From NCBI RefSeq assembly GCF_000341895.1, contig NC_020409.1, positions 3,182,411 through 3,214,410 on the forward strand: DNA of 32,000 nt, read 5' to 3'. Position numbers and translations under genes: made by a program. Below are positions 13,841 through 28,365 of the stretch, piece by piece. The notes under the pieces were generated by a model that saw only the letters and a list, made by a program, of their open reading frames with translations, ran no database searches and had not been told where the DNA came from. Origin of the DNA: Pseudodesulfovibrio piezophilus C1TLV30. GTDB taxonomy: Bacteria > Desulfobacterota > Desulfovibrionia > Desulfovibrionales > Desulfovibrionaceae. The number at the start of each line of letters is the position of its first letter. Within the stretch, counting starts at the first letter, position 1.

Positions 13841-14569
13841 ATGACAGTCACCCATATGACGGGCGGTCCCTCTGTGCACTTCGAGAATGTCGGTCTTTCA
13901 CTTGGCGGAAACACCATCCTCGACGGGGTGAATTTTACGGTGGCAGCCGGAACCATTCATTGTGTTATCGGTCCCAATGGAGGGGGGAAGACTTCACTCA
14001 TTCGGTCCCTGCTCGGTCAAATGCCCCATACTGGGGATATTCGTATCTGCTGGGGGAATGATTGGACCATGGGGTATGTGCCTCAGGCCCTTGAGTTCGA
14101 TGATTCACTCCCAATGACCGTTGCCGATTTCATGGCGATGATCGGGCAACGTCATCGTCCTGCTTTCATGGGCTTGAAACGGGATAGCCGGACTTTGGTT
14201 GAGAATGTTCTGGCTCGAGTTGACATGCTCGACAAAAGAGATCGACCTTTTGGCTCCCTGTCCGGCGGTGAACGGCAACGCGTGCTGCTGGCACAGGCCC
14301 TGATGCCTTCCCCGAAACTGCTCGTGCTGGATGAACCCGCATCCGGGTTGGACAAAGCAGGTGCTGCCGTCATGCATTCCATTGTTCAGGAATTGTCGGA
14401 CAACGGAACGACTGTCCTTATCATTCATCATGATCTTGGTATAGTTCGGGAAATAGCCCATGGGGTGACCTGCATAAATCAACACATGCTTTTCTCCGGC
14501 GATCCGCAGCAGGAATTGACCTCGGAGCGCATTTTTACCATCTTCTCCTCTTCTGCAAAGGCGGCTTGA
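13841..14569 (+). CDS. Metal ABC transporter ATP-binding protein
   Basis: Walker A GPNGGGKTS, signature LSGGERQR, Walker B LLVLDEP, H-loop IIHHD. Confidence 0.9.
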   Translation: MTVTHMTGGPSVHFENVGLSLGGNTILDGVNFTVAAGTIHCVIGPNGGGKTSLIRSLLGQMPHTGDIRICWGNDWTMGYVPQALEFDDSLPMTVADFMAMIGQRHRPAFMGLKRDSRTLVENVLARVDMLDKRDRPFGSLSGGERQRVLLAQALMPSPKLLVLDEPASGLDKAGAAVMHSIVQELSDNGTTVLIIHHDLGIVREIAHGVTCINQHMLFSGDPQQELTSERIFTIFSSSAKAA

Positions 14570-15480
14570 TTTTCATGCATTCAGTGTACGATTTTATTCG
14601 GTCTCCACTTATGGAGTGGGGCAGGGCTGGGGTATTGCCGGAATTTTTCCAATACGCTTTTGTGGTCAATGCGCTTTTGTGTGCTTTGATTGCCGGGCCG
14701 TTGCTGGGTGGGATAGGAACCATGGTCGTTTCCAAACGATTGGCTTTTTTTTCCCAGGCAGTGGGGCAGGCTGCCTTGACCGGTGTCGCCCTTGGCGTGC
14801 TTCTCGGGGAGCCTGTCACAGCTCCGTATGCCTCTCTTTTCGGTTTTTGCATTCTTTTTGCCTTGACCATGAATTATACCAGGAACCGCACGCGTATGAA
14901 GCAGGATACTGTTATCGGTGTCTTTCTCTCTATTTCGCTGGCAGTGGGTGCCTGCGTTTTGCTTTATGTCACAGCTCGGGTCAACATGCATGTCCTCGAC
15001 AATATCCTGTTCGGTTCCATTCTGACGGTCAATGACACTGATATGAATGTCCTTCTGGGTATCGGGGCCATTTGTATGGCGGTGGGGATTCCCACCTATA
15101 ATAATATGCTGCTGTCCAGTTTCAATTCCAGTCTGGCTCAGGTTCGCGGGGTCAATGCTACCCTGCACGATTATATCTTCGTGCTCATGATTACTGTGAT
15201 TACCGTAGCGTGCCTCAAGATCGTCGGCGCGGTACTGGTGGAAGCGCTTCTGATCATTCCTGCGGCTTCGGCACGGAATATCAGCCGTTCCATCAAGGGT
15301 TTTTTCGGATACAGTGTCGTTTTTGCCACCGTGAGTTGCCTGCTTGGCATCATTGTCCCCATGCAGTTTGAAATACCGGTGCCGTCCGGTGGGGCAATTA
15401 TTCTGGTCGCGTCATTCCTTTTTGCGCTTACTGCCGGAATTCGGGCTGTTTCCGGTTCCTACAAGGAGGCCTCGGCATGA
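14566..15480 (+). CDS. Metal ABC transporter permease (ZnuB/TroC type)
   Basis: 304-aa polytopic hydrophobic protein. The start overlaps the ATPase stop and the stop overlaps the next start. Confidence 0.9.
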   Translation: MIFMHSVYDFIRSPLMEWGRAGVLPEFFQYAFVVNALLCALIAGPLLGGIGTMVVSKRLAFFSQAVGQAALTGVALGVLLGEPVTAPYASLFGFCILFALTMNYTRNRTRMKQDTVIGVFLSISLAVGACVLLYVTARVNMHVLDNILFGSILTVNDTDMNVLLGIGAICMAVGIPTYNNMLLSSFNSSLAQVRGVNATLHDYIFVLMITVITVACLKIVGAVLVEALLIIPAASARNISRSIKGFFGYSVVFATVSCLLGIIVPMQFEIPVPSGGAIILVASFLFALTAGIRAVSGSYKEASA

Positions 15481-16412
15481 TCAAAAAACTGACATTGGCA
15501 CTCTTTGTTTCACTTCTTGTCGTTGTCGTCTCCAAGGCAGCAGTCCCTGATCTTCCGGCTCAGAGGAGCGAAACCATAGTCCTTGCCTCTCTTGATGTTG
15601 TGCAAGCACTTGGAGAGGCGCTGACGGAGCAGACATCCATCAGGGTTCTCAATGCCATTCCGCAGGGGTATTCAATGCAGGGGCAAAGGGCATACCTGAA
15701 GAAGCATCAGGACATCTTTTCCCAATTGGCAGAGCATGCAGCAGGGGTGCTTTCCGTGACCTCTGCCTGGAGCGATGATCCTCTTTATCAGTGGGCTCGA
15801 CGAGCCAATATCCGAATCGTGAATATTGATGTGACCAAGCCTCTTGATGGATATGGTGCGGGCGTGCCTCTGCTCCAGGTGGAGGGAGCGTATTCGCCGT
15901 ATGTCTGGCGCAGTCCCGCTAACCTGACTCGTATGGCCGTGATTGCGGCTGATGATCTATCCCGTCTGGTTCCCCATGAAGCGCAGACCATAGAGGAGAA
16001 TCTCAAGAAGTTGCAATCCGCATTGTTTCAATTGCGCAGTCGTTATGAAAACGCCTTCACCCAAATGGAGTTGGTTGATCTTGCTGCATTGACGGGTGAC
16101 TACACCTATCTCATGGATGAATTCGGCCTGGGCATTCGCTTTTATACCCTCAAACCCGAAGGACAGTGGACCGCAGACGAAGAACAAGCTCTTTCTCAAC
16201 ATCTGAGTCAATCAGGGATTGTCGGGGTCATTTGTCCATGGGAGCCGGAAGAAAAGGGACGTCAGGTTATCAGGAAAGGCGGCGCTGTCCCCATCGTGTT
16301 GAAAAAGTATGTGTCCTCACTGGGTGTGGACCCGGTTACATCTTTGGTTCGTTGGTATGACGATAATTTATCCCAGTTGCTTGGGGCGCTGAAAACTACA
16401 ACAGGAGGCTGA
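15477..16412 (+). CDS. Second ZnuA/TroA-fold binding-protein paralogue lacking the canonical His ligands
   Basis: 311 aa with a signal or anchor helix. It has the same overall block order as the first binding protein. The His blocks are replaced: LASLDVV for LHPYYSF, IPQGYSM for NPHNYRP, and SPYVWRSP for NPHTFVS. Confidence 0.65.
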   Translation: MIKKLTLALFVSLLVVVVSKAAVPDLPAQRSETIVLASLDVVQALGEALTEQTSIRVLNAIPQGYSMQGQRAYLKKHQDIFSQLAEHAAGVLSVTSAWSDDPLYQWARRANIRIVNIDVTKPLDGYGAGVPLLQVEGAYSPYVWRSPANLTRMAVIAADDLSRLVPHEAQTIEENLKKLQSALFQLRSRYENAFTQMELVDLAALTGDYTYLMDEFGLGIRFYTLKPEGQWTADEEQALSQHLSQSGIVGVICPWEPEEKGRQVIRKGGAVPIVLKKYVSSLGVDPVTSLVRWYDDNLSQLLGALKTTTGG

Positions 16413-16585
16413 TGATGGATACGGTCATTGCTCTTATCATTATTGGTGCGGCTGCTTGTTTTCTTTTTTTCAAAATGAAGGCCAAGTTTTCATCCAAGGG
16501 AGGATGCGGGTGCGGATGCGGGTGCGGTACGGAAAGTTGCTGCGATGGTGATGAGGAAAAACACTCGGTACCGCATGATGACTAA
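16412..16585 (+). CDS. Cys-rich single-TM miniprotein (FeoB-associated Cys-rich membrane protein type); too short for the ORF track
   Basis: 57 aa read by hand: MMDTVIALIIIGAAACFLFFKMKAKFSSKGGCGCGCGCGTESCCDGDEEKHSVPHDD. The ATG overlaps the TGA of the upstream gene (16410-16414). TAA lies at 16583-16585, in frame. The (GC)4 run is encoded by a 12-nt tandem GGATGCGGGTGC x2 at 16502-16525. Confidence 0.6.
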   Translation: MMDTVIALIIIGAAACFLFFKMKAKFSSKGGCGCGCGCGTESCCDGDEEKHSVPHDD

Positions 16586-16748
16586 GTTGAAAAGCGTGAT
16601 TTGAAAGGGCTTGGCTCTTTGTGACGGGCGCGGTATGGTCAATCACTGCTCTCTCATGTTCCCCTGTTGATTGATCCTTTTCGGGTTCTTTTGGGAGAAT
16701 TTGCATGAGAGCAGGCTCTCATGTAGTAATCCGCAACAGGAGGGAAGA

Positions 16749-17057
16749 ATGAACTTTGCTACAATTGCCGCGTTAAGAAAATATTTGTCGATTAAACACA
16801 GTTTGCCGGGCCGGATAAGGATCAAGTTCTCGCTTGCCATCATGTCTGATCCCGAGGCGCTCAAGCTTGCCCAGTCTCCGCCGGAGATGCCCGAAGCTGT
16901 TACGGATACGCAATTGAATTTGTTTTCTCGTACTTTATTGATTGAATATGACGCAGAGCGAGTGCCACCTGCCTTGCTTGAAGAACTGATCACAACAGAT
17001 GATGATGTGAGGGCAGCAGAAGTTGTCGAAGAATTACACCAAGCTCTCTTTGTCTAG
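16749..17057 (+). CDS. Small soluble HMA-like (Cys-less, GRIR-motif) protein
   Basis: 102 aa from ATG 16749, with SD CAGGAGGG upstream. The track start at 16671 is a TTG lying in the leader. The motif SLPGRIRIKF followed by ...TLLIEYD resembles the N-terminus of the ATPase at 18365 (SIPGRIRFES). There is no CxxC. Confidence 0.55.
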   Translation: MNFATIAALRKYLSIKHSLPGRIRIKFSLAIMSDPEALKLAQSPPEMPEAVTDTQLNLFSRTLLIEYDAERVPPALLEELITTDDDVRAAEVVEELHQALFV

Positions 17058-17083
17058 ATAATCTGGCAGAGATCCTTTTCCAG

Positions 17084-17109
17084 AAGCGCGGCGGATGCCG
17101 CGCTTTTTT
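17084..17109 (+). terminator. Rho-independent terminator
   Basis: AAGCGCGGC-ggat-GCCGCGCTT stem-loop followed by a T6 run (17104-17109). Confidence 0.8.
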
Positions 17110-17500
17110 CATACCTTTCCGGCTTGTTTCAAGTTGACTCTGATAATCGTTTTCAATAATGTCCTCTCGACCCGTATGGAATCGGAAGTGGCACTGTGTT
17201 CTTTTGTAAAGCGAGCCAAATGTCCGATTGGTGTCTTCACACAAAGAACAAAAAAGGTGTGCCGATGTCCCGAAAGTCAGAGAATACATTTGAAACCCTC
17301 CCCAGTCCTGTTGATCATCTTGTCAACGGTGTCCAAATCAAGCGAAACCCCAGAGACCGCAAGAAGTTCTTTCTGCGCTCCGGGTGTGTCCTTGTTTCCC
17401 TCTGCGGTTTGCTCGCGTGCAATTCGTTGGGCTTGAGTCTTGGGCGTGTTGTCTGCCACGGCCTCTTGATTGCTTCCCTGGGTGCCCCCTCTCGAAAGGT

Positions 17501-17537
17501 GAATTGATTTTATAACGGTTACCGTTAAAAATCATTC
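17501..17537. promoter_or_regulatory. 37-bp AT-rich palindrome (candidate Fur-family operator) ahead of the ATPase operon
   Basis: GAATTGATTTTA-TAACGGT-T-ACCGTTA-AAAATCATTC. The core 17513-17527 is a perfect 7-1-7 palindrome. The arms resemble Fur half-sites (AATCATT). It shares the 8-mer ATGAGAAT (reverse strand, 17532-17539) with the repeat at 10592. Confidence 0.45.
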
Positions 17538-17608
17538 TCATGGTTGTACCATCTTTCTACACTATGGTAGCAGTATTCATCCTGCAACGTGAAGGAGTCT
17601 TGAAGAAA

Positions 17609-17803
17609 ATGAATGAGTTGACGGAAAAATTACTATTGGTTGCTGCGGGGGCTGCAGTTGGGGCGCTCGGTTATATGGCCGTGAAACATCCTGATGAACT
17701 CAAGGAGTTCATGGGAGATGCGGCTGAGCTTGGGCAGAAATTTTTTGAGAAAACCATGGCTGACGTGGCCGATAAAATGGGTCATTCGAAGGACGCCGCT
17801 TAA
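17609..17803 (+). CDS. Small glycine-zipper membrane protein (FezA/FezC-like or YtxH-like candidate)
   Basis: 64 aa from ATG 17609, with GGAG at 17594-17597. The track start at 17540 adds an unlikely 23 aa. N-terminal helix LLLVAAGAAVGALGYMAV, then an amphipathic acidic helix (PDELKEFMGDAAELGQKFFEKTMADVADKM). Confidence 0.6.
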   Translation: MNELTEKLLLVAAGAAVGALGYMAVKHPDELKEFMGDAAELGQKFFEKTMADVADKMGHSKDAA

Positions 17804-17814
17804 AGGAAGAGACT

Positions 17815-18276
17815 ATGGCTATCAACAGAATCGCATATTTGATTGCCGGAGCTGCGCTTGGAGCTGCCGGTATGGCATTGGCCAAGGAAGGCAAAGGGGA
17901 AAACCTGCTGCAATCTCTGGTACAAGGGGGACATGGACTGACTGACAAGTTGCTTGGGACAGTGGAGACCATCAAGGAAGACGTGGAAGATTATCTGGCC
18001 GAGGCCAAGTTCGCGCATGAGCAGAAGGCGAAAGAGGCTGCGAAGCCCGCTGCAGCCGCTGCTGCCACGGCAACTGTAGCCACAACAGCTGCCAAGGCTG
18101 CCACAAAGAAGCCCACCGCAAAGAAATCGGCAGCGAAAAAAACTCCAGCCAAGAAAGCAGCACCCAAAAAGTCTGCGGCCAAGAAACCCGCTGCCAGGAA
18201 GCCTGCGGTGAAAAAGACGACGGCAAAAAAAAATAGTCCGAAGAAGACGGCGACCAAAGCTCCTACCGGCGAATAG
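17815..18276 (+). CDS. Glycine-zipper membrane protein with a histone-H1-like Lys/Ala/Pro-rich C-terminal tail
   Basis: 153 aa with SD AAGGAAGAG upstream. N-terminal helix IAYLIAGAALGAAGMALA, an amphipathic segment, then from about aa 71 a tail rich in KKP/AKK repeats (TKKPTAKKSAAKKTPAKKAAPKKSAAKKPAARKPAVKKTTAKKNSPKK). Confidence 0.7.
   Translation: MAINRIAYLIAGAALGAAGMALAKEGKGENLLQSLVQGGHGLTDKLLGTVETIKEDVEDYLAEAKFAHEQKAKEAAKPAAAAAATATVATTAAKAATKKPTAKKSAAKKTPAKKAAPKKSAAKKPAARKPAVKKTTAKKNSPKKTATKAPTGE
18025..18273 (+). repeat. Low-complexity coding repeat: (A/T/S/P)-A-K-K units forming the poly-basic tail
   Basis: Reiterated AAGAA(A/G)...GC(N) codon units. The antisense ORF 17991..18347 is its mirror artefact. 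Confidence 0.8.
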
Positions 18277-18364
18277 TTCGAATCCATTGGTTCTTTCGGT
18301 GCATGGCAGGCGTGGTTTTCTGCTTCACCGGCCCCATTAACAAGCATGAGATCATGGTTGGTGT

Positions 18365-20503
18365 ATGAATATTGTCCGTAGCATTCCCGGTCGCATCCGT
18401 TTTGAGTCGGAATCCGAGCAGGCAGTCCTGTATATACAGGAGTATCTTCAGAAAGTCGTAGGTGATGATCTTGGCGAGATAGAGTTCAGCTACAGTCAAC
18501 GGTCAGGTCGTGGACTGGCGCTGTTTTCCCCTTGCCCGAATCTGACTGCGAGGGTGCTGGAAGCCATGGGGGCCGCTATGGCCGAGCCTCCTGTTCCGGA
18601 ACTTCCTACCTGTCGAACCGCCGCTCCAGGCGATGAGATGGCATGTACATTGCCTGCGCTTGGATCAGCCTTATATGAAGCTGAAACTATTGAGAATCCT
18701 TTTTGGATTGTTGCCAAGAAAGTGCTCAATTTTTACATGACCCGGCTGTTCATGCCTGCGACGATTCGTCCTTACTGGACAGTCTTCAGCGTTTCACCTT
18801 TGATCTTCGAGGGAGTCCGATCTTTATTCCAGCGTCAATTGAACGTTGCCGTGCTTGATGCCGCAGCCATCGGGTCTGCCCTGGCCATGCGGGACTTCAA
18901 TACTGCGGGAACCATTCATTTGTTGCTCGACATCAGTGAAACCCTGGAAGACTGGACTCGAGAGAAGTCTCGAAGTGACCTCGCTTCCTTATTTCGGGGT
19001 GATGGCAAACCCGTCTGGGTTTTACGCAAGGGTGAAGAGGTCCAGACTCCGCAGGAGAACCTTGTTTCTGGAGATTTGGTTATTGTCCGTTCCGGGGCGC
19101 GTATTCCTGTGGATGGAGTTGTTGCCGATGGTACGGCCATGGTCAACCAGGCTTCCATGACGGGAGAGCCGTTGTCTGTGAAGCGTGGACCGGGCAAGGA
19201 AGTGTATGCCGGGACAGTCGTTGAGGAAGGCAAGATCATTATTCTCTCCGAAGGAGTTGGTGATGAAACCCGATTCGCCAAAATTGCTCAGGTTATTGCT
19301 GATTCCGAAAACATGAAGGCGGACATTCACGGCCAAGCTGTGAAGTTGGCCGACAAGATTGTTCCATATTCCTTTCTGCTTTCCGGGGTGATTTTCGCAG
19401 TGACCAGGAACTGGATGCAGGCCGCAGCCGTTCTTATGGCGGATTATTCCTGTGCCATAAAACTCGCGACACCTCTTGCCGTGCGTTCGGCCATGTTGGA
19501 GTCTGCCCACTGCGGAGCGTTGATCAAAGGGGGAAAATTTATTGAGCAATTGGCTCAGGTCGATGCCATTGTGCTGGACAAGACCGGCACCCTGACCAAG
19601 GCCTCTCCTGAGGTCGTGGATATCTGCCCGGTCAATGGCTACACCCGTGAATTTATCCTGCGCAATGCCGCCTGCATGGAGGAACATTTCCCCCATCCTG
19701 TGGCAGACGCGGTTGTCAGGAAAGCCGATGAAGAAGGTTTCAATCATGATGAAAAGCATGCAGAAGTTGAATATATTCTTGCCCATGGCATAGCGACGAC
19801 GCTGGATGGTCAACGCATGATTCTCGGCAGCAGGCACTTTGTCCACGAGGATGAGGGGATTGATTTGGACGAAGCTGAGGCTCAGATCTCTCGGTGTTCC
19901 GAGAGCGGATTGTCCACACTGTATATGGCTGTCGGTGGGAAGCTCGCCGGTGTCATTGCTCTGCAAGACCCGCTCAGGGAGTCGGCCTATCGGTTCATCA
20001 GGCGGCTGGAGAACATGGGCATGAAGCGGATCATCATGCTGACCGGTGATGGAGAAGCAACGGCCAGGAATGTTGCCGCTGAATTGGATATTCAGGAATA
20101 CTATGCGCAGGTTTTGCCGGACGAAAAGACTGATCTGGTGGATTCCCTGCGAGAGGAAGGGTATACTGTGGCCATGGTGGGTGACGGTATCAATGATTCT
20201 GCCGCACTAAGTCGAGCTGATGTGGGAGTCTCCATGAAGCATGGAGCCGATATTGCCCAGGAGGCGTGTGATGTGATGCTGACAAGCGAACGCCTGGACA
20301 GTCTCATGGATGCCATGTCCCTTTCGAAGATGGTCATGCGTCGGATTAAGCGGAATTATCGATTTATTGTCGGGAGCAATACTCTTTTCATCGGTCTCGG
20401 TGTGGCAGGGATCATTTCTCCGGCCATGCTTGCCTTTTTGCATAATTCAGGAACGGTTTTGACCTGCGCTCACAGTATGCGCCCCATGCTCCCTGAACAA
20501 TAA
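18365..20503 (+). CDS. P1B-type heavy-metal ATPase with an S-C-A membrane motif (P1B-6 / FezB-like) and an N-terminal Cys-less HMA-like domain
   Basis: 712 aa. TGE (SMTGEPLSV), DKTGT (19577-19591), MLTGDGEATA and VGDGINDSAAL. The membrane helix before the P-domain reads ADYSCAIKLATPLAV, with S-C-A at 19448-19456 in place of CPC. Only two hydrophobic helices precede the actuator domain. The N-terminus SIPGRIRFESE...GLALFSP is HMA-like without CxxC. Confidence 0.9.
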   Translation: MNIVRSIPGRIRFESESEQAVLYIQEYLQKVVGDDLGEIEFSYSQRSGRGLALFSPCPNLTARVLEAMGAAMAEPPVPELPTCRTAAPGDEMACTLPALGSALYEAETIENPFWIVAKKVLNFYMTRLFMPATIRPYWTVFSVSPLIFEGVRSLFQRQLNVAVLDAAAIGSALAMRDFNTAGTIHLLLDISETLEDWTREKSRSDLASLFRGDGKPVWVLRKGEEVQTPQENLVSGDLVIVRSGARIPVDGVVADGTAMVNQASMTGEPLSVKRGPGKEVYAGTVVEEGKIIILSEGVGDETRFAKIAQVIADSENMKADIHGQAVKLADKIVPYSFLLSGVIFAVTRNWMQAAAVLMADYSCAIKLATPLAVRSAMLESAHCGALIKGGKFIEQLAQVDAIVLDKTGTLTKASPEVVDICPVNGYTREFILRNAACMEEHFPHPVADAVVRKADEEGFNHDEKHAEVEYILAHGIATTLDGQRMILGSRHFVHEDEGIDLDEAEAQISRCSESGLSTLYMAVGGKLAGVIALQDPLRESAYRFIRRLENMGMKRIIMLTGDGEATARNVAAELDIQEYYAQVLPDEKTDLVDSLREEGYTVAMVGDGINDSAALSRADVGVSMKHGADIAQEACDVMLTSERLDSLMDAMSLSKMVMRRIKRNYRFIVGSNTLFIGLGVAGIISPAMLAFLHNSGTVLTCAHSMRPMLPEQ

Positions 20504-20716
20504 GCCACCCTCGAAATTCCATGTCGGAAGTCCTCTCTGAGAGGGATGCCTGACAGATGGTGATGACCTCGTTGCGTTCTTGCCACAAAAGATCCGATCC
20601 AGATGTGTTGAAAAACATGCTGGAGCGGATCTTTTTAATGCGCTCCTCAGAGCATCTCGAATGTCTGCCGGGTCGGATTCTTCTGTGGACCGTCTTCCTT
20701 TTTCAGAAATTCCCCT

Positions 20717-20749
20717 TTGGATTGTGTCGAAATTATAATATACTTTATC
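20717..20749 (+). promoter_or_regulatory. Candidate promoter with an overlapping Fur-box-like sequence ahead of the Gly-rich/CDF genes
   Basis: TTGGAT (20717-20722), a 16-nt spacer, then TATACT (20739-20744). AATTATAATATACTTTATC (20731-20749) matches 13/19 of the classical Fur box by hand alignment. Confidence 0.35.
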
Positions 20750-20891
20750 GGTATGGAATAATTGAACTTATGAGACTTGTTGGAGAATTGATGAAGGGTG
20801 GTTCTCGTTCTCATTTTTTGCAGGGAACGGCAAATCAGAGTAGGTTACAGGGGAGTGATAACACTGTGACAGATTATCAAGGAGTTGGGTC

Positions 20892-21503
20892 ATGAAGCAA
20901 TTTCTTCCAAAGAATCCGTTTGCGGCTGCTGGTGTGGGAGCACTGGTTGGCGCAGGAATAGCCGGGTACAAAATGTGGTCATTGTATAAGGGCGGTGAAG
21001 TTTCCAAGCAGGAAGCAGTCGCTGGTGTCGTCAAGCAGAGTCTCTTGTTTGGCGGCGTTGCAGCAGCGACGACCGTGGCTGGAGGGCAGGGCGGCGGCGG
21101 TATAGGTATTGCTGCCATGTCATTAGTCGGCATGGGGGGCCGAGGAGGAGGTGGCGGTGGAATGTTGCCAGGACTTTTCTCCGCTTCCCTTGGTGGAGGT
21201 CGAGGAGGCGGTGGAGGCATGGGCGGCTCGGGCGGCGGTGGTCGCGGTGGTATGGGGGGGAATGGAGGATCCGGTGCTGGCGGCGGAGGAAGTCGTGGGA
21301 ATCAAAGCACAGGAATTCTTGATTCAATATCCAACGCCGTGAGTGGTCTTTTGGTTTCCGATGAGCCGAGCGAACAGGCGCTTGAAGAGTCGGTGGATCG
21401 AGCCTTGGAAAAAGGAACCGTTTCGGCTACCGGTCTTGACGAAGAAGGGCTTGAAAGCGATGAGGATCGTGATGAGGAATCTTCAGAGGAAGAGAAAGCT
21501 TAG
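20892..21503 (+). CDS. Glycine-zipper membrane protein with a Gly/Arg-rich disordered region and an acidic C-terminal tail
   Basis: 203 aa. N-terminal helix PFAAAGVGALVGAGIAGY and a second hydrophobic stretch SLLFGGVAAATTVAG. Residues about 64-136 are roughly 70% Gly with RGG units (GGRGGGGGGM, GGGRGGGGGMGGSGGGGRGGMGGNGGSGAGGGGSRG). Residues 157-203 are Asp/Glu/Ser-rich (DEEGLESDEDRDEESSEEEKA). Confidence 0.65.
   Translation: MKQFLPKNPFAAAGVGALVGAGIAGYKMWSLYKGGEVSKQEAVAGVVKQSLLFGGVAAATTVAGGQGGGGIGIAAMSLVGMGGRGGGGGGMLPGLFSASLGGGRGGGGGMGGSGGGGRGGMGGNGGSGAGGGGSRGNQSTGILDSISNAVSGLLVSDEPSEQALEESVDRALEKGTVSATGLDEEGLESDEDRDEESSEEEKA
21081..21299 (+). repeat. Low-complexity (GGN)n coding repeat
   Basis: GGC/GGT/GGA/GGG runs. 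They produce the mirror-image poly-Pro ORF on the minus strand (20768..21220). Confidence 0.8.
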
Positions 21504-21532
21504 AAGAATCAGGCCTAACCGGAGAGACTGTC

Positions 21533-22708
21533 ATGAATGAGCGTACTGTCACTGTCGAGGGTGATAACGATCTTGTCGCGGCACGGAAAAGAGCAGCTCT
21601 TTCGGTACTGCTCAACATGATACTTGCTCTGGTAAAAGGTGGTGCCGGGATTCTTTCCGGCAGTGCCGCCCTTATAGGTGATGCGGTCCACTCCGCGGCC
21701 GATGTTTTTGCATCCGGGGCTGCACTTGTCGGTCTGTGGATTGCCGGTAAAAAGCACCCGTCATTTCCTTTCGGATTATACAAGGCCGAAAATATCGCGA
21801 CGTTGGTCATTGCTTTGGCCGTGATTATGGTTGCGTACGAGATTGGCCGGGATGCGCTCATTGGTGGTGAAACCATACCGGACACTGCTCTTGCCTTGCC
21901 GGTTGCCATTGGCTCGTTGATTGTTGCCGTTGTCTTTGGGCTTTTTCAGCTTCGATGCGGGAAAAAACTTGGGTCCCCGGCCTTGATCGCCGATGCGCGG
22001 GACTATCTGGTGGATGGTGCATCCACGGGAGTGGTGATCATTGGTTTGATCGGAGCCAGTTTTGGTTTTGCTTTGGATCGATGGGCTGCCGGTGCGGTTT
22101 CACTTTTTGTGCTTTGGGCCGGTTTCGAGCTTTTGGTTGATGCGGTGCGAGATTTACTTGATGCCGCCATGCCTCGGGAGTTGGTGCACGATCTCAGTTC
22201 GCTTGTGGAAAAACAACCTTTGGTCTCACGAGTGCTCGGCTGTGTCGGGCGGCAGGCCGGTGGTCGTTATATCGCCAATCTTGATATCCTTCTGCGCACC
22301 AATGACCATCTGGTCGCTGACAGGGTGGCAGATCGTCTGGAAGTGCTGGTGAAGAAAGAGTTTCCGCGAATTGTCATGGTCCATGTGAGGACACACTTCG
22401 GACACAGTGAGTCTCATCGACGGATCACGCCTGTCATTGATCATGGTGGAGCCATGGCCGAAGGACTGGCTTCTGCCCCTTGGTTCATGGTGGAGGATTT
22501 GGATGGACAGACCAAAGCAGTTACCGAGTGCGCATTTGTCAGGAATCCTCACAGGGATGCGCCTAAACGTCGTGGACTGATGGTCGGGCAGATGCTTATG
22601 GAGCTTAAACCTGATCAGGTCATCAGGCCTGATGGACATGCCGGAACAGCTCTTGCCCTGTTGGAAGAGGCCGGAGTGGATATTCTCCGTATAGGTGAGG
22701 AAAAGTAA
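21533..22708 (+). CDS. Cation diffusion facilitator (CDF) transporter fused to a C-terminal NifX/NifB-like (FeMo-cofactor-binding family) domain
   Basis: 391 aa. CDF TM2 motif SAALIGDAVHSAAD and TM5 motif LIADARDYLVD. The cytoplasmic CDF C-domain covers LLDAAMP...IVMVHV. From about H295 (nt 22415) there is an extra module of about 95 aa (ITPVIDHGG...APWFMVEDLDGQ...FVRNPH...LKPDQVI...ALLEEAGVDILR) whose pattern resembles the dinitrogenase Fe-Mo cofactor biosynthesis (NifX/NafY/NifB-C) fold. Confidence 0.8.
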   Translation: MNERTVTVEGDNDLVAARKRAALSVLLNMILALVKGGAGILSGSAALIGDAVHSAADVFASGAALVGLWIAGKKHPSFPFGLYKAENIATLVIALAVIMVAYEIGRDALIGGETIPDTALALPVAIGSLIVAVVFGLFQLRCGKKLGSPALIADARDYLVDGASTGVVIIGLIGASFGFALDRWAAGAVSLFVLWAGFELLVDAVRDLLDAAMPRELVHDLSSLVEKQPLVSRVLGCVGRQAGGRYIANLDILLRTNDHLVADRVADRLEVLVKKEFPRIVMVHVRTHFGHSESHRRITPVIDHGGAMAEGLASAPWFMVEDLDGQTKAVTECAFVRNPHRDAPKRRGLMVGQMLMELKPDQVIRPDGHAGTALALLEEAGVDILRIGEEK

Positions 22709-22742
22709 GACGCCTTCAATAATAAAAAGCGCAGGCGTCTTA
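22706..22742. terminator. Hairpin between convergent genes (weak candidate bidirectional terminator)
   Basis: TAAGACGCC ... GGCGTCTTA form a 9-bp stem with a 19-nt A-rich loop. It starts at the CDF stop codon. Confidence 0.3.
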
Positions 22743-22760
22743 CCGTTTGATTTGAGCGGG

Positions 22761-23192
22761 CTACTTGGCGAGCGTGCGACGGTTCTGATAGATGTGCATT
22801 CCGAGCAGGCTGAGGAATGCGCTGCCCGCCACAACATGCCAGCGTTCGGAATAGTAGACGATTCCGATGGCTGCAATCAAGGATGCCGCTAACCCTCGCT
22901 TGACGTATCTGCGCGCCTTGCGGCCATTGAGTGTCTTCTGGGCACTGGCCATATTGGCCTTGACCTTGTTCATGTCGATGCCAAGGCCTTCGGCGATCTT
23001 GGTCAGAATATTCTCGGCAGTGATTTTGGTCTTGTCGAAAAGAATGAGAATGCTTCCCACACGTTTGTTGACCTGTACCTGAATCACCCCTTTGACTTCC
23101 AGCAGGGAATCTCGGACCTTGTAACCGAAATCGGCAACTTTGAGGGCCTCGTTTCTGAACCGGATACGTCCTTCTTCTGCGACTGCGTTCAT
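22761..23192 (-). CDS. Cys-less HMA-like (GRIR-motif) domain protein with an Arg-rich linker and two C-terminal TM helices
   Basis: 143 aa from ATG 23192, with SD AAGGAGAGAGAC upstream. The track start at 23225 is a GTG. Sequence reads EEGRIRFRNEALK...VKGVIQVQVNKRVGSILILFD, then RKARRYVKRG, then LAASLIAAIGIVYY and VVAGSAFLSLLGMHIY. Confidence 0.6.
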   Translation of the reverse strand: MNAVAEEGRIRFRNEALKVADFGYKVRDSLLEVKGVIQVQVNKRVGSILILFDKTKITAENILTKIAEGLGIDMNKVKANMASAQKTLNGRKARRYVKRGLAASLIAAIGIVYYSERWHVVAGSAFLSLLGMHIYQNRRTLAK

Positions 23193-23267
23193 GTCTCTCT
23201 CCTTGCTTTGTAACTGTGCTGTCACAAATAGAGTTTTGCACGAAAAGGCGAAGGGGTGTCAATCATC

Positions 23268-23286
23268 GGGAATTATTATCAACAAT
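23268..23286 (-). promoter_or_regulatory. Fur-box-like sequence upstream of the HMA-like membrane protein gene
   Basis: The minus-strand sequence ATTGTTGATAATAATTCCC matches 12/19 of the classical Fur box and has a perfect TGATAAT core. It lies 76-94 nt upstream of ATG 23192. Confidence 0.3.
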
Positions 23287-23366
23287 CATGTTTTTTGCGA
23301 GAAAATCAGTGCATTTTCAGCAGACTGAATTGGTTGTCCTGTATTTAGAATGCCATGTCGTGCCGA

Positions 23367-24746
23367 TTAGTAAGAATACGGCAGAGTGATATTCATGCAC
23401 ACACATCCGGATTCATAGGTTGCCTGAATGGTTCCGCCATGCTTCTCAACTATTTTTTTTGTTGCAGCCAATCCTAGCCCTGTGCCTGCTTCCCTGCCTT
23501 TGTCCAGTCGTTGAAAGGGGGTGAACATGTCAACCAGATCTTTTTTCGACAGTGGGGCATGGGAATTACTCAGGTTTATTTCGATATTCCCATCATGCAA
23601 AGCGACTCGCGCTGACATGGTGCCGTTCGGGGCAGTGTATTTGATGGCATTGCCAAGCAGATTTTCCAGAACAACACTGATTGCGTGGGCGTTGCACACG
23701 TATCCCGGAATACCCTCAAGGCTGGTGGTCACGGTCAGGGCTTTCTGTTCAATCATGGTATCGAATTGATCGATCTTGTGCTGGAAGCACTGTGCGACAT
23801 CTATGGAATCAGTTCGTGGTGGCGGTTCTCGGAGATCAAGCTTTGAAAAGGCGAGCAAATGACCGATAATGGCATCCATGTTCTCGATTTCATTTTCTAT
23901 CTTTGCAACTTGTCGATCAAGGGTATCCTTGGCACTGGTTGTATCCCTTTCCATGATCAACTGCAGGGAGATGCGCATCCTGGCGAGGGGGGATCGCAAC
24001 TCATGCGAAACATGTGCTGTCAGTTCCTTGCCGCTTTTCACCATTTCTTCCAAATGATTGGCCATACGGTTGAACTTGCGGGCGAGAACCGCGACTTCAT
24101 CCTTGCCTTTTTCCGGCACTCGTTGGGAAAAATCTCCTTTTCCAAGACGGTCCGCCGCTTCACTCAATTGCAGGATGGGACGGGTTATTCGTCTTGAGAC
24201 GGGAATGATGAACAGGGCACTGAGTGCGGTGAGAAGAAGTAACCCCTTGAAAAACCATACTTCTTCCTTGCGTTGTCGCTTGCCCATGAGAACATGGGTG
24301 GTCAGCGGCGGCTGATTGCGCAAAACCATGGGCATTTCGATGTATATTCTGCGATATGAGTTGGTGTGTATCGCAAAGAGTTTGACCGATGTCCCTTCCA
24401 GCGTGACAGGTGATAACTCTCCATCCACTTCAGGAGGGGTTCCTTCGAAGTTGCTGACTATCAGGTTTTTTGCGTCATCCGTCAGCCAGATGTGGGCATT
24501 GAACCCTTTACCCAGCAATTTTAGAAGAGGAGTGAGTGTTCGCTTAATGGATTGGGGAGAGGTTTCCTTCCCTTCCATCTCCCTCTGGATGAGCATGGCC
24601 CCCAGTTCTGCTTTTTCCACCAGATTCCGAATCATTGGTGGTGGCATTTCATTGGAAAGGACAATGCTGAAGACAATGGCATCCGCCGCTATGAGAACAG
24701 CGACAAAAGCCAGGAAGAGTTTGAGGTAGAGGCGGCTGATGCTCAT
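23367..24746 (-). CDS. Sensor histidine kinase (periplasmic sensor, HAMP, HisKA, HATPase)
   Basis: 459 aa. TM1, a periplasmic region of about 150 aa, TM2, and HAMP (ITRPILQLSEAADRLGKGDFSQRV). H-box AHVSHELRSPLARM, N-box LLGNAIKY, G-boxes GTGLGLAATKKIVEKHGG. Confidence 0.9.
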   Translation of the reverse strand: MSISRLYLKLFLAFVAVLIAADAIVFSIVLSNEMPPPMIRNLVEKAELGAMLIQREMEGKETSPQSIKRTLTPLLKLLGKGFNAHIWLTDDAKNLIVSNFEGTPPEVDGELSPVTLEGTSVKLFAIHTNSYRRIYIEMPMVLRNQPPLTTHVLMGKRQRKEEVWFFKGLLLLTALSALFIIPVSRRITRPILQLSEAADRLGKGDFSQRVPEKGKDEVAVLARKFNRMANHLEEMVKSGKELTAHVSHELRSPLARMRISLQLIMERDTTSAKDTLDRQVAKIENEIENMDAIIGHLLAFSKLDLREPPPRTDSIDVAQCFQHKIDQFDTMIEQKALTVTTSLEGIPGYVCNAHAISVVLENLLGNAIKYTAPNGTMSARVALHDGNIEINLSNSHAPLSKKDLVDMFTPFQRLDKGREAGTGLGLAATKKIVEKHGGTIQATYESGCVCMNITLPYSY

Positions 24747-25462
24747 GATGCCCCCAGGAACATATACCCTGTTCCCCAGACAGTTTTGATGCGACTGGCG
24801 TGCGCTTCATACGGCTTGAGCAGGGAACGAAGCTTGTGGACATGGACATCAATGCTGCGGTCAAAGGCGGAAAAATCCTTGTCCCAGACCAGATTCATCA
24901 ATTCGTCGCGGGTCATGGCGGTATCCGGGTTATTCATGAAGACCTTGAGCAGTCGATACTCCGTGGCGGACAGTTCCAGTTCATCTTCTTCGACTGTCAC
25001 GACCTGGCGGGCAGTATTCAGGCTGAGTCCGCCACACTCGATCAGTCTGGTCGAGTGTCTGGTGCCGTTCTCAGAGGCGATAATTTCGTACCGTCTCAGG
25101 ATTGCTTTGATTCTGGCTAATAATTCTCTGGGGTTGAATGGCTTGGGCATATAGTCGTCTGCCCCCAGTTCCAGGCCGACGATACGGTCCGTATCTTCTC
25201 CCTTGGCCGTCAGCATGATCACAGGGACCGATGAAACAGTCCTCAGTTCGCCCAGCACCTGCAAACCATCTTTGCCCGGCATCATGATGTCGAGAATGAC
25301 CAGACATGGCTTTTCTGCTGTGACGGTTTCCACCACCTTTTCTCCCGAGGGGAGTGTGAGCACTTTGAACCCGTAGCCCGTCAAGTACTCGGTGATGAGT
25401 TCCCGGAGTTCATCATCGTCATCAATTATGAGAATCGCGCCATTGTTATCCATGGTGTTCAC
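24743..25462 (-). CDS. OmpR/PhoB-family response regulator
   Basis: 239 aa. Receiver domain with ILIIDDDDELRE, LVILDIMMPGKDG and MLTAKG. Winged-helix output domain with LSATEYRLLKVF and IKTVWGTGYMF. The listed start is GTG at 25462, and an in-frame ATG lies at 25453. The gene overlaps the kinase gene by 4 nt. Confidence 0.9.
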   Translation of the reverse strand: MNTMDNNGAILIIDDDDELRELITEYLTGYGFKVLTLPSGEKVVETVTAEKPCLVILDIMMPGKDGLQVLGELRTVSSVPVIMLTAKGEDTDRIVGLELGADDYMPKPFNPRELLARIKAILRRYEIIASENGTRHSTRLIECGGLSLNTARQVVTVEEDELELSATEYRLLKVFMNNPDTAMTRDELMNLVWDKDFSAFDRSIDVHVHKLRSLLKPYEAHASRIKTVWGTGYMFLGAS

Positions 25463-25504
25463 TTACCTTCTGTCAGAGCATCGGAAAAGCCTCATTTCAT
25501 ACAT

Positions 25505-25520
25505 TTAACAGTTATTAACA
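25505..25520. promoter_or_regulatory. Direct repeat TTAACA-N4-TTAACA in the divergent TCS/RND intergenic region (candidate response-regulator site)
   Basis: The hexamers lie at 25505-25510 and 25515-25520 with an exact 10-bp period. This spacing is typical of OmpR-family tandem half-sites. Confidence 0.35.
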
Positions 25521-25601
25521 CTTTTTATCATCCTCCAAAAACTCTGCCAACATTTTAGGCATAGGAATCAGGGTATGAAATCAACATTGGAGATCTGATC
25601 C

Positions 25602-27095
25602 GTGACTCACAAACCTGTTTTTGTCTCTTTTTTCCCGGCGGTGTTTTTTCTTGCCGGAATTCTCCTGCTGCCAGGATGTTCTCCATTCAGGCCGTCCGCC
25701 CGAGATATCGACCCTGCCCCTCTTCCTGTGGGCTTCACCATGTATTCGGAGAAGCCGACCGCTCCGGACCGGTGGTGGGAACAATTCGGCAATGCCGAAC
25801 TGAATGGGTTCGTGCAACAAGCTCTTTCGGCTAATTTTGATATCGAGGCAGCCTGGGCACGTCTGCGTCAGACCCGAGCCACTGCGGTGCAAACCGGGGC
25901 AGACAAGTATCCGACACTGGATGGCAGTGCGGGATATAGCCACACGAGGGCTGGTACGGACTCTTCCACCGGAGGTCGTTCCATCACGACCACGGAGGAG
26001 CATACCTTAGGGCTAAGTGCCGGGTATGAGCTTGACCTGTGGGGCCGGGTGGCTGCAGAGGCTTCGGCCGGAGAACTGGATGCACAGGTGAGCCGAGAGG
26101 ACTTGAACACTGCAGCCATGACCGTGGCCGGTGAAGTGGTCTCCAAGTGGATACAGATTCAGGCCCAGCGAAAAGAAAAGCGCATTTTGACGGAACAGAT
26201 AAAAGCCAATCAGACCTACCTCGAACTCATCGAGCTTCGCTTTCGAAACTCCCTGGCAACAGCTCTTGATGTTTATCAGCAGAGAGAGACCGTTGCCAAG
26301 GTCAAGGCAGAGCTCCCTCCCGTGGAGTCCGAGGAGCAGATCCTCTTGCACGAACTCGCGATTCTGCTAGGTCGCCCTGCCGGGTCCGTGGAAGTGGCGG
26401 ATGCCTCTCTCCCGGGTCTTTCCGCTCTTCCCGGACTCGGTCTCCCGTCCGATCTGCTTGCCAATAGACCGGATATCCGGTCGGCTGGTCTGGCGCTACG
26501 ATCTGCTGACTGGTCCGTGGCTGCTGCCCGTGCCAACCGACTTCCCTCTCTTTCTCTGGGGCTTGACGGTCAGTATTCCGGGGCACAGGTCGGGACGATT
26601 TTTGACAACTGGATGTTTGCCCTGGCCGGGTCCGTGACAGGACCTATCTTTGATGGCGGCTATCTGAAGGCTGAAGTTGAAAAGGCACGAGGAGTGGTTG
26701 ATGAACGGCTGGCTGACTACAAGTCCGCTGTCTATACGGCATTCAAGGAAGTGGAAGACGCCCTGATACAGGAAAAATGGCAGCGCAGGTATATCATTGC
26801 TCGGCGCGCTCAGTTGGAGGCCGCCAAGGTCAATCTGGACGAAGCCATTTCTCGATATACTCAGGGGCTTGAAGATTATCTACCGGTCCTGACGGCTCTG
26901 TTGTCCGTACAGGATCTGGAAATTTCCGAGGTCGAGGATCAGACCGATCTTCTCCTCTACCGCGTTGCCCTGTACAGGGCCTTGGGTGGTTCCTGGACCG
27001 ATGAACTGAAACCGCCGATCTCGACCTCTGATTCGTCGGCTACCCCGGCTCCAGGCTCTCCTGCTCCAGTAATGCAAACCAAGACCAATGGATAA
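25602..27095 (+). CDS. RND efflux outer-membrane factor lipoprotein (NodT/OprM family)
   Basis: 497 aa with a GTG start. Lipobox LLLPGC. Two OEP-type repeats, with a typical WWxxFxD-like start (RWWEQFGNAELNGFV) and YRALGGSW near the C-terminus. Confidence 0.9.
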   Translation: MTHKPVFVSFFPAVFFLAGILLLPGCSPFRPSARDIDPAPLPVGFTMYSEKPTAPDRWWEQFGNAELNGFVQQALSANFDIEAAWARLRQTRATAVQTGADKYPTLDGSAGYSHTRAGTDSSTGGRSITTTEEHTLGLSAGYELDLWGRVAAEASAGELDAQVSREDLNTAAMTVAGEVVSKWIQIQAQRKEKRILTEQIKANQTYLELIELRFRNSLATALDVYQQRETVAKVKAELPPVESEEQILLHELAILLGRPAGSVEVADASLPGLSALPGLGLPSDLLANRPDIRSAGLALRSADWSVAAARANRLPSLSLGLDGQYSGAQVGTIFDNWMFALAGSVTGPIFDGGYLKAEVEKARGVVDERLADYKSAVYTAFKEVEDALIQEKWQRRYIIARRAQLEAAKVNLDEAISRYTQGLEDYLPVLTALLSVQDLEISEVEDQTDLLLYRVALYRALGGSWTDELKPPISTSDSSATPAPGSPAPVMQTKTNG

Positions 27096-28365
27096 AAACA
27101 TGACTCAAAAAGAACGCCGGTTTTCCGGTCTATTTAGCGTAAAAATCCTGATTCCGACCGTGATCCTTTTGACTGCGGCCATGGGAGCTTACGTCATGAT
27201 CAAGACTGCACCCAAAGCTCATCGGGTCGCTCCTGTGACCATACTGCCGACTGTGGAGGTCGCGACCTACGAGAAAGGATCGCACGCCATCGGTCTTTCG
27301 GTCATGGGCACTGTGGTAGCGGCTAATGAAGTGACATTGGTTTCCCGCTTGTCCGGAGAAATCGTGTCTGTCAGTGATTCATTTCTGCCGGGTGGATTCT
27401 TTCGAAAGGGCGATGAGGTCCTGCGTATTGACCCCAAGGATTATGAGCTTGCGTTGCGTGAAACCAAAGCGGATATGGTCACGGCTGAGTATGATCTCAA
27501 GGTGGAGCAAGGGTATCAGAACGTCGCAGGGCGGGAATGGAATCTGCTCAAGAAGTCGGCCAAGGGAACGGAACAGGAAGCTGAACTTGCTTTGAGAAAA
27601 CCTCACCTGCTCAAGGCTCAGGCGGACCTGGAAGCGGCCAAAGCTCAGGTGGAGCAGGCTGAAATAAACTTGCAGCGGACGAAGGTGACGGCTCCCTTCG
27701 CCTCCATGATTGAGTCAAAAAGCTCTGATATCGGGGCAACCGTGGCTGCGCAGGAAGCGCTGGCGACCATTGTTGGGACGGATGAATTCTGGGTTGAGGT
27801 TTCAGTGCCGGTGGATCGTCTCGACCATATCACCTTTCCCATGGCTGATGGCACGGTCGGTTCAAAAACCACTGTTTATAACGGGAAAGACGAGACCTCC
27901 GCACGCAGGGAAGGGCATGTCATTCGATTACTCCCGTCATTGGAGAGTGAAGGGCGCATGGCCCGTGTCCTGATTTCCATTGCGGACCCCCTTAATCTGA
28001 AAGGCGATCCTTCGCTCAAACCCATTCTGCTTGGCAGCTATGTCAAGGTGGTCATTGCCGGTGGGGAAATCGCGGATTCATATGCCATTCCCAGAAAAGT
28101 CTTCCGCGACAACAGCAAAATATGGGTTCTTGGTCAGGATGGCACTTTGGACATCCGCACGGTGAACCCTGTTTGGCGTGATGCACAGACCATTCTGCTC
28201 AAGGAAGGCCTGATGCCCGGCGAACAGGTCGTCCTCTCTTCCCTGACCGCCCCCATGCAAGGCATGAAGCTTCAGGCCGCATCCGATACAGCCGTAACGG
28301 TCAAGACCACGGTTTCGGTAGAAGCGAAAAATGATCTGGCAGCCGAGGTCAGCCATGGCGAATAA
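27088..28365 (+). CDS. RND efflux periplasmic adaptor (membrane fusion protein)
   Basis: 425 aa. N-terminal anchor helix, a coiled-coil hairpin (LLKAQADLEAAKAQVEQAEINLQRTKVTAPF), and barrel domains. The start overlaps the outer-membrane-factor stop (27088-27095). Confidence 0.9.
   Translation: MDKNMTQKERRFSGLFSVKILIPTVILLTAAMGAYVMIKTAPKAHRVAPVTILPTVEVATYEKGSHAIGLSVMGTVVAANEVTLVSRLSGEIVSVSDSFLPGGFFRKGDEVLRIDPKDYELALRETKADMVTAEYDLKVEQGYQNVAGREWNLLKKSAKGTEQEAELALRKPHLLKAQADLEAAKAQVEQAEINLQRTKVTAPFASMIESKSSDIGATVAAQEALATIVGTDEFWVEVSVPVDRLDHITFPMADGTVGSKTTVYNGKDETSARREGHVIRLLPSLESEGRMARVLISIADPLNLKGDPSLKPILLGSYVKVVIAGGEIADSYAIPRKVFRDNSKIWVLGQDGTLDIRTVNPVWRDAQTILLKEGLMPGEQVVLSSLTAPMQGMKLQAASDTAVTVKTTVSVEAKNDLAAEVSHGE

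Follow-up and report, generated by a model that had tools for sequence, protein, structure and literature searches.

The closest described counterparts of the locus treated here, a stretch of 32,000 nucleotides from the genome of Pseudodesulfovibrio piezophilus C1TLV30 (contig NC_020409.1, positions 3,182,411 to 3,214,410; the whole stretch is called the window, and coordinates are counted from its first letter), are the fez clusters, which encode the membrane-bounded iron-storage organelles known as ferrosomes. Three genes of the window, named g1, g2 and g3, encode small proteins with a Gly/Ala-rich N-terminal helix and flank the gene of an ATPase, and they are the main subject of this work. 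Grant et al. (bioRxiv 10.1101/2020.01.10.902569) defined FezB as a P1B-6 ATPase required for ferrosomes, found that FezA, FezB and FezC co-purify with these organelles and that deletion of fezBC abolishes them in D. magneticus, and noted that proteins with an R-rich motif are also encoded by many fez clusters. Anchors with a GxxxG motif beside an ATPase with an SCA motif are already a published hallmark of ferrosome clusters, and the motif was proposed in the same work to serve for helix-helix packing or membrane curvature beside FezB. In E. coli, FezA and FezB together yield ferrosomes, which form polar clusters unless they are artificially tethered to the nucleoid (10.1101/2025.09.22.677801).

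A second bacterial iron-mineral organelle, the magnetosome, offers further terms of comparison. MamC (Mms13; NF038051, PF26373) is abundant in the magnetosome membrane of magnetotactic Alphaproteobacteria and Magnetococcales. It has two transmembrane helices with a lumenal loop, and its C-terminus is exposed on the magnetosome surface. In Mms6 and Mms7, a Gly/Leu-rich membrane segment precedes an acidic C-terminus that binds Fe (PMC6206293). Regarding storage organelles of other kinds, polyphosphate granules are spaced by AlgP (PMC9239181) and polyhydroxyalkanoate (PHA) granules are linked to the nucleoid by PhaF (PMC7590123, PMC3574117).

The fez cluster of P. piezophilus

Judged from its sequence, the locus is a fez (ferrosome) gene cluster, whose central genes are the following:

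17609..17803, forward strand: g1 (BN4_20119, WP_157871430.1), a FezA-like paralogue of 64 residues, from its orthologues and hhalign comparisons
17815..18276, forward strand: g2 (BN4_20120), the FezA orthologue, of 153 residues, from phmmer matches upstream of fezB
18365..20503, forward strand: FezB (BN4_20121, CCH50183.1), P1B-6 ATPase, with Pfam matches to E1-E2_ATPase and Hydrolase and a match to TIGR01525 (E=1.6e-147)
20892..21503, forward strand: g3 (BN4_20122), a MamC-like protein of 203 residues, from hhalign comparison with MamC

The translation of FezB contains all its signature motifs, namely the SCA-type DYSCAIK (as ADYSCAIK) in the membrane domain, HNSGT, which is the HN(x)(x)T motif of the last transmembrane helix, and the N-terminal R-rich RSIPGRIRFESE; BN4_20121 is listed with the same three motifs in the supplementary data of Grant et al. 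(bioRxiv 10.1101/2020.01.10.902569). Its neighbours are likewise those of a fez cluster, with HMA_2 genes on both sides (16749-17057 and 22761-23192), g1 and g2 as GxxxG proteins, and a synteny that is kept in relatives. Exact matches to P. piezophilus protein records were obtained for g1 (WP_157871430.1), FezB (CCH50183.1) and a further small protein, g0 (WP_162138618.1), which is described below. Since these data list BN4_20117, 20119, 20120, 20121 and 20124, the core of the finding was already published, with g1 (subgroup 2-11) and g2 (subgroup 2-10) given as GxxxG proteins of one group. g0 (BN4_20118), g3 (BN4_20122) and the gene of a CDF metal transporter (BN4_20123) were not found in the part of these data that was searched. 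Likewise, we found no description elsewhere of the relationship between g3 and MamC, of a clade-wide switch of the FezA tail or of the conserved ORF (open reading frame) g0, which give this variant of a known system its moderate interest.

An initial annotation of the window had proposed that g1, g2 and g3 are membrane-anchored proteins flanking an ATPase with an SCA motif, which agrees with published fez clusters (bioRxiv 10.1101/2020.01.10.902569), and such proteins very probably act with the ATPase. The same annotation had joined the three into one small paralogous family. The comparisons below make it probable, from sequence and predicted architecture, that they are ferrosome membrane components from two unrelated families: g1 and g2 have the same N-terminal GxxxG helix as the FezA-type proteins and the same place upstream of fezB, and g3 is not a member.

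Anchors of g1 and g2

Comparisons were made with a set of 80 loci encoding relatives of FezB, in which all six-frame ORFs were searched, and the scores given by hhalign were controlled with shuffled columns and with shuffles preserving the architecture of the family (for g3, its helix-loop-helix layout). All three ORFs exist as initially annotated, each with a ribosome-binding site (AAGGAG before 17609 and 20892, AGGAAG before 17815), and their helices lie, as was said, within the first 30 residues. Each helix falls within residues 6-26 and comprises about 17-20 uncharged residues, with a hydropathy of 1.6-2.0 (17-residue Kyte-Doolittle) and one GxxxG motif (GAAVG at residue 14 of g1, GAALG at residue 12 of g2 and GALVG at residue 16 of g3). 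The pattern A-(A/G)-G-x-x-(L/V)-G-A-x-G, which had been proposed for all three, fits g1 (AAGAAVGALG) but neither g2 (IAGAALGAAG) nor g3 (GVGALVGAGI), and the only motif common to them is G-A-x-(L/V)-G-A. An uncharged N-terminal GxxxG helix, being common to the three proteins, cannot on its own separate families.

More informative is the relationship with FezA. The N-terminal 75 residues of g2 match by phmmer the ORF located immediately upstream of fezB in 68 of the 80 loci, from Desulfovibrionaceae to Lachnospiraceae, and g2 is therefore taken as the positional and sequence orthologue of FezA. Its anchor (residues 6-23, nucleotides 17830-17883) is followed by a conserved acidic helix ...VETIKEDVEDYLAEAK, which ends at residue 65. 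These two parts, GxxxG helix and conserved acidic helix (VETLKEDIEDYxAEAK), make up the core of FezA, and residues A11, G12, G16 and A17 of the anchor are invariant in the family. That the anchor of g2 is a mere signal peptide is unlikely, since the candidate ALA|K cleavage site is not kept across the family and the Gly/Ala positions are invariant.

In the case of g1, the RefSeq start gives a protein of 64 residues (an older GenBank call, from an upstream ATG, gives 87), with an anchor at residues 8-25 (nucleotides 17630-17683) and an acidic amphipathic helix of 38 residues as the remainder. Orthologues were found in nine relatives, all of the close clade and always directly upstream of fezA. 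The g1 and FezA families aligned by hhalign with scores of 26-27 (P from 5e-5 to 1.6e-4) over 38-58 columns, compared with 9.7±2.0 for column shuffles and 13.5±2.8 (maximum 21.4) for architecture-preserving shuffles, none of 60 of which reached the score of 26.1 (P=1.6e-4). On these scores g1 is a short FezA-like paralogue of g2.

The g3 family behaved differently, scoring 9.7 against the FezA family, below the mean of the architecture-preserving shuffles (12.1±2.0), and 13.2, a background value, against the g1 family. In the lack of similarity above background to FezA, the common anchor is real for g1 and g2 only, and the likeness of g3 is one of composition; with these controls, a FezA paralogue is ruled out as the identity of g3. 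The proposed small family thus stands for the g1/g2 pair (26.1 against 13.5±2.8) and does not extend to g3, which has two helices and a loop in the manner of MamC. A loss of similarity after correction for Gly/Ala bias, the result that the initial annotation had itself set as speaking against its family, was seen for g3 and not for the pair. ORFs with an N-terminal GxxxG helix were also enriched 2.3-fold within 2.5 kb of fezB (p=0.002), a crude test of little weight that misses many FezA proteins through the choice of start codon.

g3 and its remote relationship with MamC

The core of g3 comprises residues 1-83 (nucleotides 20892-21140), with helices at 9-33, 39-63 and 71-80, and is followed by a Gly/Arg-rich disordered region. 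AlphaFold2 models the first two helices as a hairpin (predicted local distance difference test score, pLDDT, of 74-85) together with the short helix 71-80; mean pLDDT of the AlphaFold2 models was about 55. For the comparison with MamC, 79 MamC-family proteins were retrieved, several of them named MamC in the source, and the 74 with at least 100 residues were aligned. The g3 core aligned with these 74 sequences by hhalign with a probability of 94.8%, a P of 5.3e-8 and a score of 49.1, the alignment being colinear over 69 columns that run through helix 1, the loop and helix 2. All controls stayed below this value, whether with shuffled columns (11.2±2.0, maximum 17.8), with the reversed alignment (16.6) or with architecture-preserving shuffles (15.2±3.8, maximum 30.8). 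Moreover, reciprocal searches with hidden Markov models (HMMs) of 26,380 ORFs and the MamC set led to the same place from both ends, since the first matches of the g3 HMM beyond its own family were all MamC sequences (best E=1.4e-6) and the best ORF matches of the MamC HMM were g3 orthologues.

Further support comes from precomputed Pfam matches to PF26373 (MamC), present on three of five close relatives; on two more members of the g3 family the match is marked as weak. The D. oxyclinae orthologue has a precomputed Pfam MamC match and matches the NCBIfam MamC model weakly (E=0.008, 16.4 bits, with a curated cut-off of 100 bits for NF038051), colinear over residues 15-74. With this evidence, g3 is to be regarded as a remote homologue of MamC, not as its equivalent. 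In both proteins the helices are Gly/Ala-rich and the C-terminal extension is hydrophilic, and both are encoded beside iron-transport genes of an iron-mineral organelle. The differences are equally clear: g3 falls below the cut-offs, it does not keep the acidic loop residues required for the effect on magnetite, it carries about 120 extra residues (the Gly/Arg-rich region and an acidic tail), and no mam genes occur in the P. piezophilus cluster. P. piezophilus is not known to be magnetotactic. An identity as true MamC equivalent was rejected on the grounds of scores, loop residues and a fez rather than magnetosome-island context. No report of MamC homologues outside magnetotactic bacteria was found in the literature searched.

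The g3 family is rare: a search of 1.84 billion representative proteins gave 13 clusters at E≤1e-10. In six of eight assessable contexts it lies in a fez cluster, with no mam genes. Its gene follows fezB in P. piezophilus, D. oxyclinae, locus L088 and a TARA contig, and precedes it in two Halodesulfovibrio genomes; for a further member (L089), no fezB is present on its 3.1-kb contig. A glycine-zipper family was rejected for g3, since Pfam gave no match at E≤10 for it and four relatives other than a chance HIG_1_N match, and no sequence match at E≤10 to a solved structure was found in the PDB.

Composition and turnover of the tails

As initially described, the proteins diverge beyond their anchors into charged tails of very different composition. 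The 38-residue tail of g1 has a net charge of −4 and is amphipathic over residues 29-46, where the hydrophobic moment is 0.52. That of g2 (83-88 residues, nucleotides ~18010 to 18273) is made of Lys, Ala, Pro and Thr with a net charge of +22 to +23, and contains at 18121-18208 a degenerate 30-nucleotide (10-residue) tandem repeat of about three copies with 77% match, which suggests that it grew by repeat expansion. In g3, a Gly/Arg-rich stretch with 32% Gly is followed by an acidic tail of about 47 residues (nucleotides 21360-21500), the last 45 of which have a net charge of −14. Disorder, also foreseen by the initial annotation, is predicted by AlphaFold2 with pLDDT below 50 for residues 78-133 of g2 and for most of g3 past residue 64. 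The tails are lineage-specific appendages of low complexity with predicted disorder.

FezA tails were classified in 75 proteins by net charge, with −3 or below taken as acidic, +5 or above as basic and the remainder as short or neutral. The tails were acidic in 47 of them, short or neutral in 20 and basic in 8, with lengths from 6 to 111 residues and sequences that could not be aligned. Unlike most FezA-type proteins, which have an acidic tail or hardly any, g2 bears a histone-H1-like tail of +22, and all eight basic tails (+10 to +22) belong to one clade, formed by P. piezophilus, D. oxyclinae, L088, L081 and L001-L004. In these relatives, whose FezB proteins are about 67-71% identical to that of P. 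piezophilus where measured, the Lys/Ala/Pro/Thr composition persists while the tail sequence has turned over completely, and such persistence without alignable sequence suggests selection on composition. To judge by these comparisons, the FezA tail switched within this Desulfovibrionaceae clade from acidic to a histone-H1-like Lys/Ala/Pro/Thr type.

A similar basic segment occurs on another protein of the cluster. In Halodesulfovibrio spirochaetisodalis (L006, 7726-8535), the tail of the g3 orthologue is first acidic and then turns basic in a Lys/Ala/Pro-rich end (…APKPAPKTTKKPAASAKKKSSKKTSPK), and the FezA tail is acidic. This location of the segment supports a movable basic module, and it does not support a fixed acid-base pair of proteins. 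The acidity of the g3 tail is itself not conserved, with net charges of only −2 in D. oxyclinae and −3 in L088, both beside basic FezA tails, and values across the g3 family that vary between −17 and +20 without any pattern.

The composition of the g2 tail and its short AKK-type repeats recall AlgP, PhaF and Hc2, where such a tail is likewise joined to a part of the protein that attaches to a storage organelle. The difference from AlgP and PhaF is that the organelle-binding part of g2 would be a transmembrane helix instead of a phasin, and that its binding to DNA or polyphosphate is putative. With regard to Mms6 and Mms7, g3 and most FezA proteins share the layout of a Gly-rich segment plus an acidic tail. 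No sequence homology was detected between Mms6 or Mms7 and either g3 or FezA; moreover, the acidic peptides of Mms6 and Mms7 are lumenal, in contrast with the g3 tail, which is probably cytoplasmic and whose acidity is not conserved.

Topology and possible roles

From these features a working model can be drawn. Each of g1 and g2 would be held in the ferrosome membrane by its single N-terminal helix of about 20 residues, which may span the membrane or be wedged in it and would pack through its GxxxG face. In g3, two Gly/Ala-rich helices would pack as a hairpin, connected through a helical loop of about 22 residues, with the loop in the lumen and the C-terminus in the cytoplasm by analogy with MamC. 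The best inference for all three tails, from indirect evidence on topology, is the cytoplasmic face. Lys and Arg are richer on the C-terminal side of the anchor in 52 of the 75 FezA proteins and on the N-terminal side in 10, and the location of the Lys/Ala/Pro segment on the g3 orthologue rather than on FezA in H. spirochaetisodalis suggests that both C-termini lie in the same compartment. The basic g2 tail might then act as a tether, binding a polyanion (nucleoid DNA or polyphosphate) and spacing or partitioning ferrosomes as AlgP and PhaF do with their granules; this function is suggested by analogy, and it is our preferred reading, held with low confidence.

Joining both lines, we tentatively propose that ferrosomes of some non-magnetotactic Desulfovibrionaceae could contain a true relative of MamC, encoded in P. 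piezophilus beside a CDF transporter similar to MamB and MamM, and that the histone-H1-like FezA tail of the same clade could attach ferrosomes to the nucleoid or to polyphosphate and so serve their spacing and inheritance. If the former were true, two bacterial iron-mineral organelles would share membrane components by descent or transfer, and the rare g3 family, which connects ferrosome clusters to MamC, gives a concrete lead on the kinship of these organelles. If the latter were true, the tail would parallel, in nature, the artificial tethers that bind ferrosomes to the nucleoid (10.1101/2025.09.22.677801); the switch offers a simple hypothesis for the positioning and inheritance of a membrane-bounded storage organelle, so far studied only through engineered tethers.

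Several points weigh against the working model. P. piezophilus g3 itself gives no match to the curated MamC models (NF038051, PF26373), G45 and Q49 of g3 stand in the alignment where MamC has the loop Asp and Glu important for magnetite binding (g3 has acidic residues elsewhere, E36 and E41), and L091, a divergent member of the g3 family, lies outside a fez cluster. For the g2 tail, the best family matches are HC2 (PF07382, 29.4 bits against a cut-off of 40) and NF038053 (hist_H1_lk_Burk, 24.7 bits against 80), that is, the histone-H1-like matches are below the cut-offs and reflect composition. The 20 of 75 FezA proteins that are almost tail-less indicate that FezA can perform its core function without a tail. 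With respect to topology, the positive-inside signal of FezA is modest and MamC itself does not clearly obey this rule. Finally, g2 was originally annotated as an 'exported protein', according to the supplementary data of Grant et al. (bioRxiv 10.1101/2020.01.10.902569), and this annotation and the ALA|K site make a cleavable signal peptide possible for P. piezophilus g2.

Other explanations have to be weighed against the tether. One of them, advanced by the initial annotation, is that the basic g2 tail and the acidic g3 tail pair electrostatically on the same membrane face to form a coacervate-like coat or scaffold around the ferrosome. Both tails do exist, are predicted to be disordered and are plausibly cytoplasmic, g3 has in addition its Gly/Arg-rich stretch, and the charges of H. 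spirochaetisodalis could be read as the same pair reversed, with an acidic FezA and a g3 orthologue that ends in a Lys-rich segment. The genomic evidence goes in the opposite direction: beside the basic FezA tails of D. oxyclinae and L088 the g3 tails are near neutral, the charge of g3-family tails follows no pattern, and the basic FezA tail is kept in five relatives (L001-L004, L081) where no g3 was found in the sequence examined, so that we consider pairing very improbable. The other proposal moves the tails to the lumen, where acidic ones would concentrate Fe(II) like the C-terminus of Mms6 and basic ones would bind phosphate or polyphosphate and nucleate an iron-phosphate core. Such a role would suit the storage of ferrosome iron as an iron-phosphate mineral, as stated in PMC13307979, the Asp/Glu-rich tails of most FezA proteins (47 of 75), the binding of Fe2+ by the acidic C-terminal peptides of Mms6 and Mms7 (PMC6206293), and the 'exported protein' annotation of g2. 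Against it stand the anchor flanks, which in 52 of 75 FezA proteins speak for a C-terminus in the cytoplasm, the surface-exposed C-terminus of the MamC family, and the fact that acidic and basic tails at the same orthologue position cannot share one chemical job. Crossing an energised membrane is moreover unfavourable for a tail of about 85 residues with a net charge of +22, and a lumenal location is in our opinion unlikely.

Better placed, and still improbable in our judgement, is the view of the tails as fast-evolving disordered spacers (entropic bristles) with no specific ligand and a drifting charge, where only the anchors and the conserved helix would matter. It accounts for tails of 6 to 111 residues that cannot be aligned, for the FezA proteins that almost lack them, for the equally erratic tails of g3 and for the degenerate repeat in the Lys/Ala/Pro tail, which is typical of expansion driven by slippage. 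What such drift does not account for is the maintenance of a basic Lys/Ala/Pro/Thr composition in the eight relatives despite complete turnover of the tail, together with the presence, in a sister genus, of a Lys/Ala/Pro module on a ferrosome protein other than FezA; both observations argue for selection on composition.

Other genes and sites of the cluster

The remaining features of the cluster are the following:

16749..17057, forward strand: BN4_20117, small soluble HMA_2 protein of 102 residues with R-rich motif SIKHSLPGRIRIKFS (Pfam HMA_2, E=2.2e-8)
17141..17155, forward strand: Fur-box-like site TGATAATCGTTTTCA upstream of g0, of the TGAAAATNATTTTCA pattern
17265..17507, forward strand: g0 (BN4_20118), conserved small protein of 80 residues, from protein-level conservation
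17526..17540, forward strand: Fur-box-like site TAAAAATCATTCTCA, about 70 bp upstream of g1, of the TGAAAATNATTTTCA pattern
21533..22708, forward strand: CDF metal transporter (BN4_20123; Pfam Cation_efflux)
22761..23192, reverse strand: FezC-type protein (BN4_20124) of 143 residues (Pfam HMA_2, E=1e-10)

The true start of BN4_20117 is Met27 of the 128-residue ORF listed, its orthologues having 102 residues. The FezC-type protein consists of an R-rich HMA_2 domain followed by a C-terminal membrane segment, and its placement on the reverse strand is kept in relatives. In the supplementary data of Grant et al. (bioRxiv 10.1101/2020.01.10.902569) these proteins appear in groups 3-1 and 3-2, respectively, the latter with the N-terminus MNAVAEEGRIRFRNE.

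With g0, the cluster has a fourth small hydrophobic protein. Its basic N-terminus leads into a hydrophobic Gly/Cys/His segment, LVSLCGLLACNSLGLSLGRVVCHGLLIASLGAP, in which two Cys and one His are conserved. Conservation of the protein sequence extends to D. oxyclinae/L086, L088 and two Halodesulfovibrio genomes (L005, L006), where g0 always lies between the HMA_2 gene and g1; it has no Pfam or NCBIfam match. RefSeq annotates the P. piezophilus copy (WP_162138618.1), and gene calls on the contigs of relatives missed it. The search for structured RNA in the intergenic gaps led to the same ORF, as the conserved block in 17058-17608 is g0; Rfam gave no match at E≤1 over 16000-23500.

The two Fur-box-like sites bracket g0, one lying just upstream of it and the other just upstream of g1-fezA-fezB, and the Fur-box-like block is conserved in D. 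oxyclinae and L088. Allowing up to two mismatches, TGAAAATNATTTTCA, a delta-proteobacterial Fur consensus, has three matches in the window against 0.28 expected; the third lies at 5804-5818. Sigma-70 promoter-like sites were at chance level in the scan (6 against 5.2±2.0), and the terminator-like sites (14 against 7.8±2.7 in shuffles) lie mostly inside genes, none of them being informative.

Among specific NCBIfam models, the CDF transporter scores highest with MamB (119 bits) and MamM (100 bits), neither of which reaches its cut-off of 350. The protein has about 100 extra C-terminal residues with a weak resemblance to Nitro_FeMo-Co (E=0.08), and D. oxyclinae and L088 lack its gene in their orthologous clusters. 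In P. piezophilus this gene is probably co-transcribed with g3, and both may have a promoter of their own in the 388-bp gap that separates fezB from g3. In the same gap, metagenome gene callers give an ORF of 112 (or 85) residues at 20557-20895 on the forward strand, which is probably spurious, no homologue support having been seen for it.

Immediately upstream of the fez genes, the forward-strand stretch 13841-16585 encodes an ABC metal-uptake operon, of the ZnuABC type by reading of its translations, and a 57-residue FeoB-associated Cys-rich membrane protein (PF12669, E=2.6e-5), both consistent with a neighbourhood of iron or metal homeostasis; among the proteins of the ZnuABC-type operon, only the ABC-type ATPase matched relatives by tblastn. 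On the downstream side, 23367-31516 contains a reverse-strand two-component system (HAMP/HisKA kinase and OmpR-type regulator) and an RND efflux operon (OEP, membrane-fusion protein and ACR_tran).

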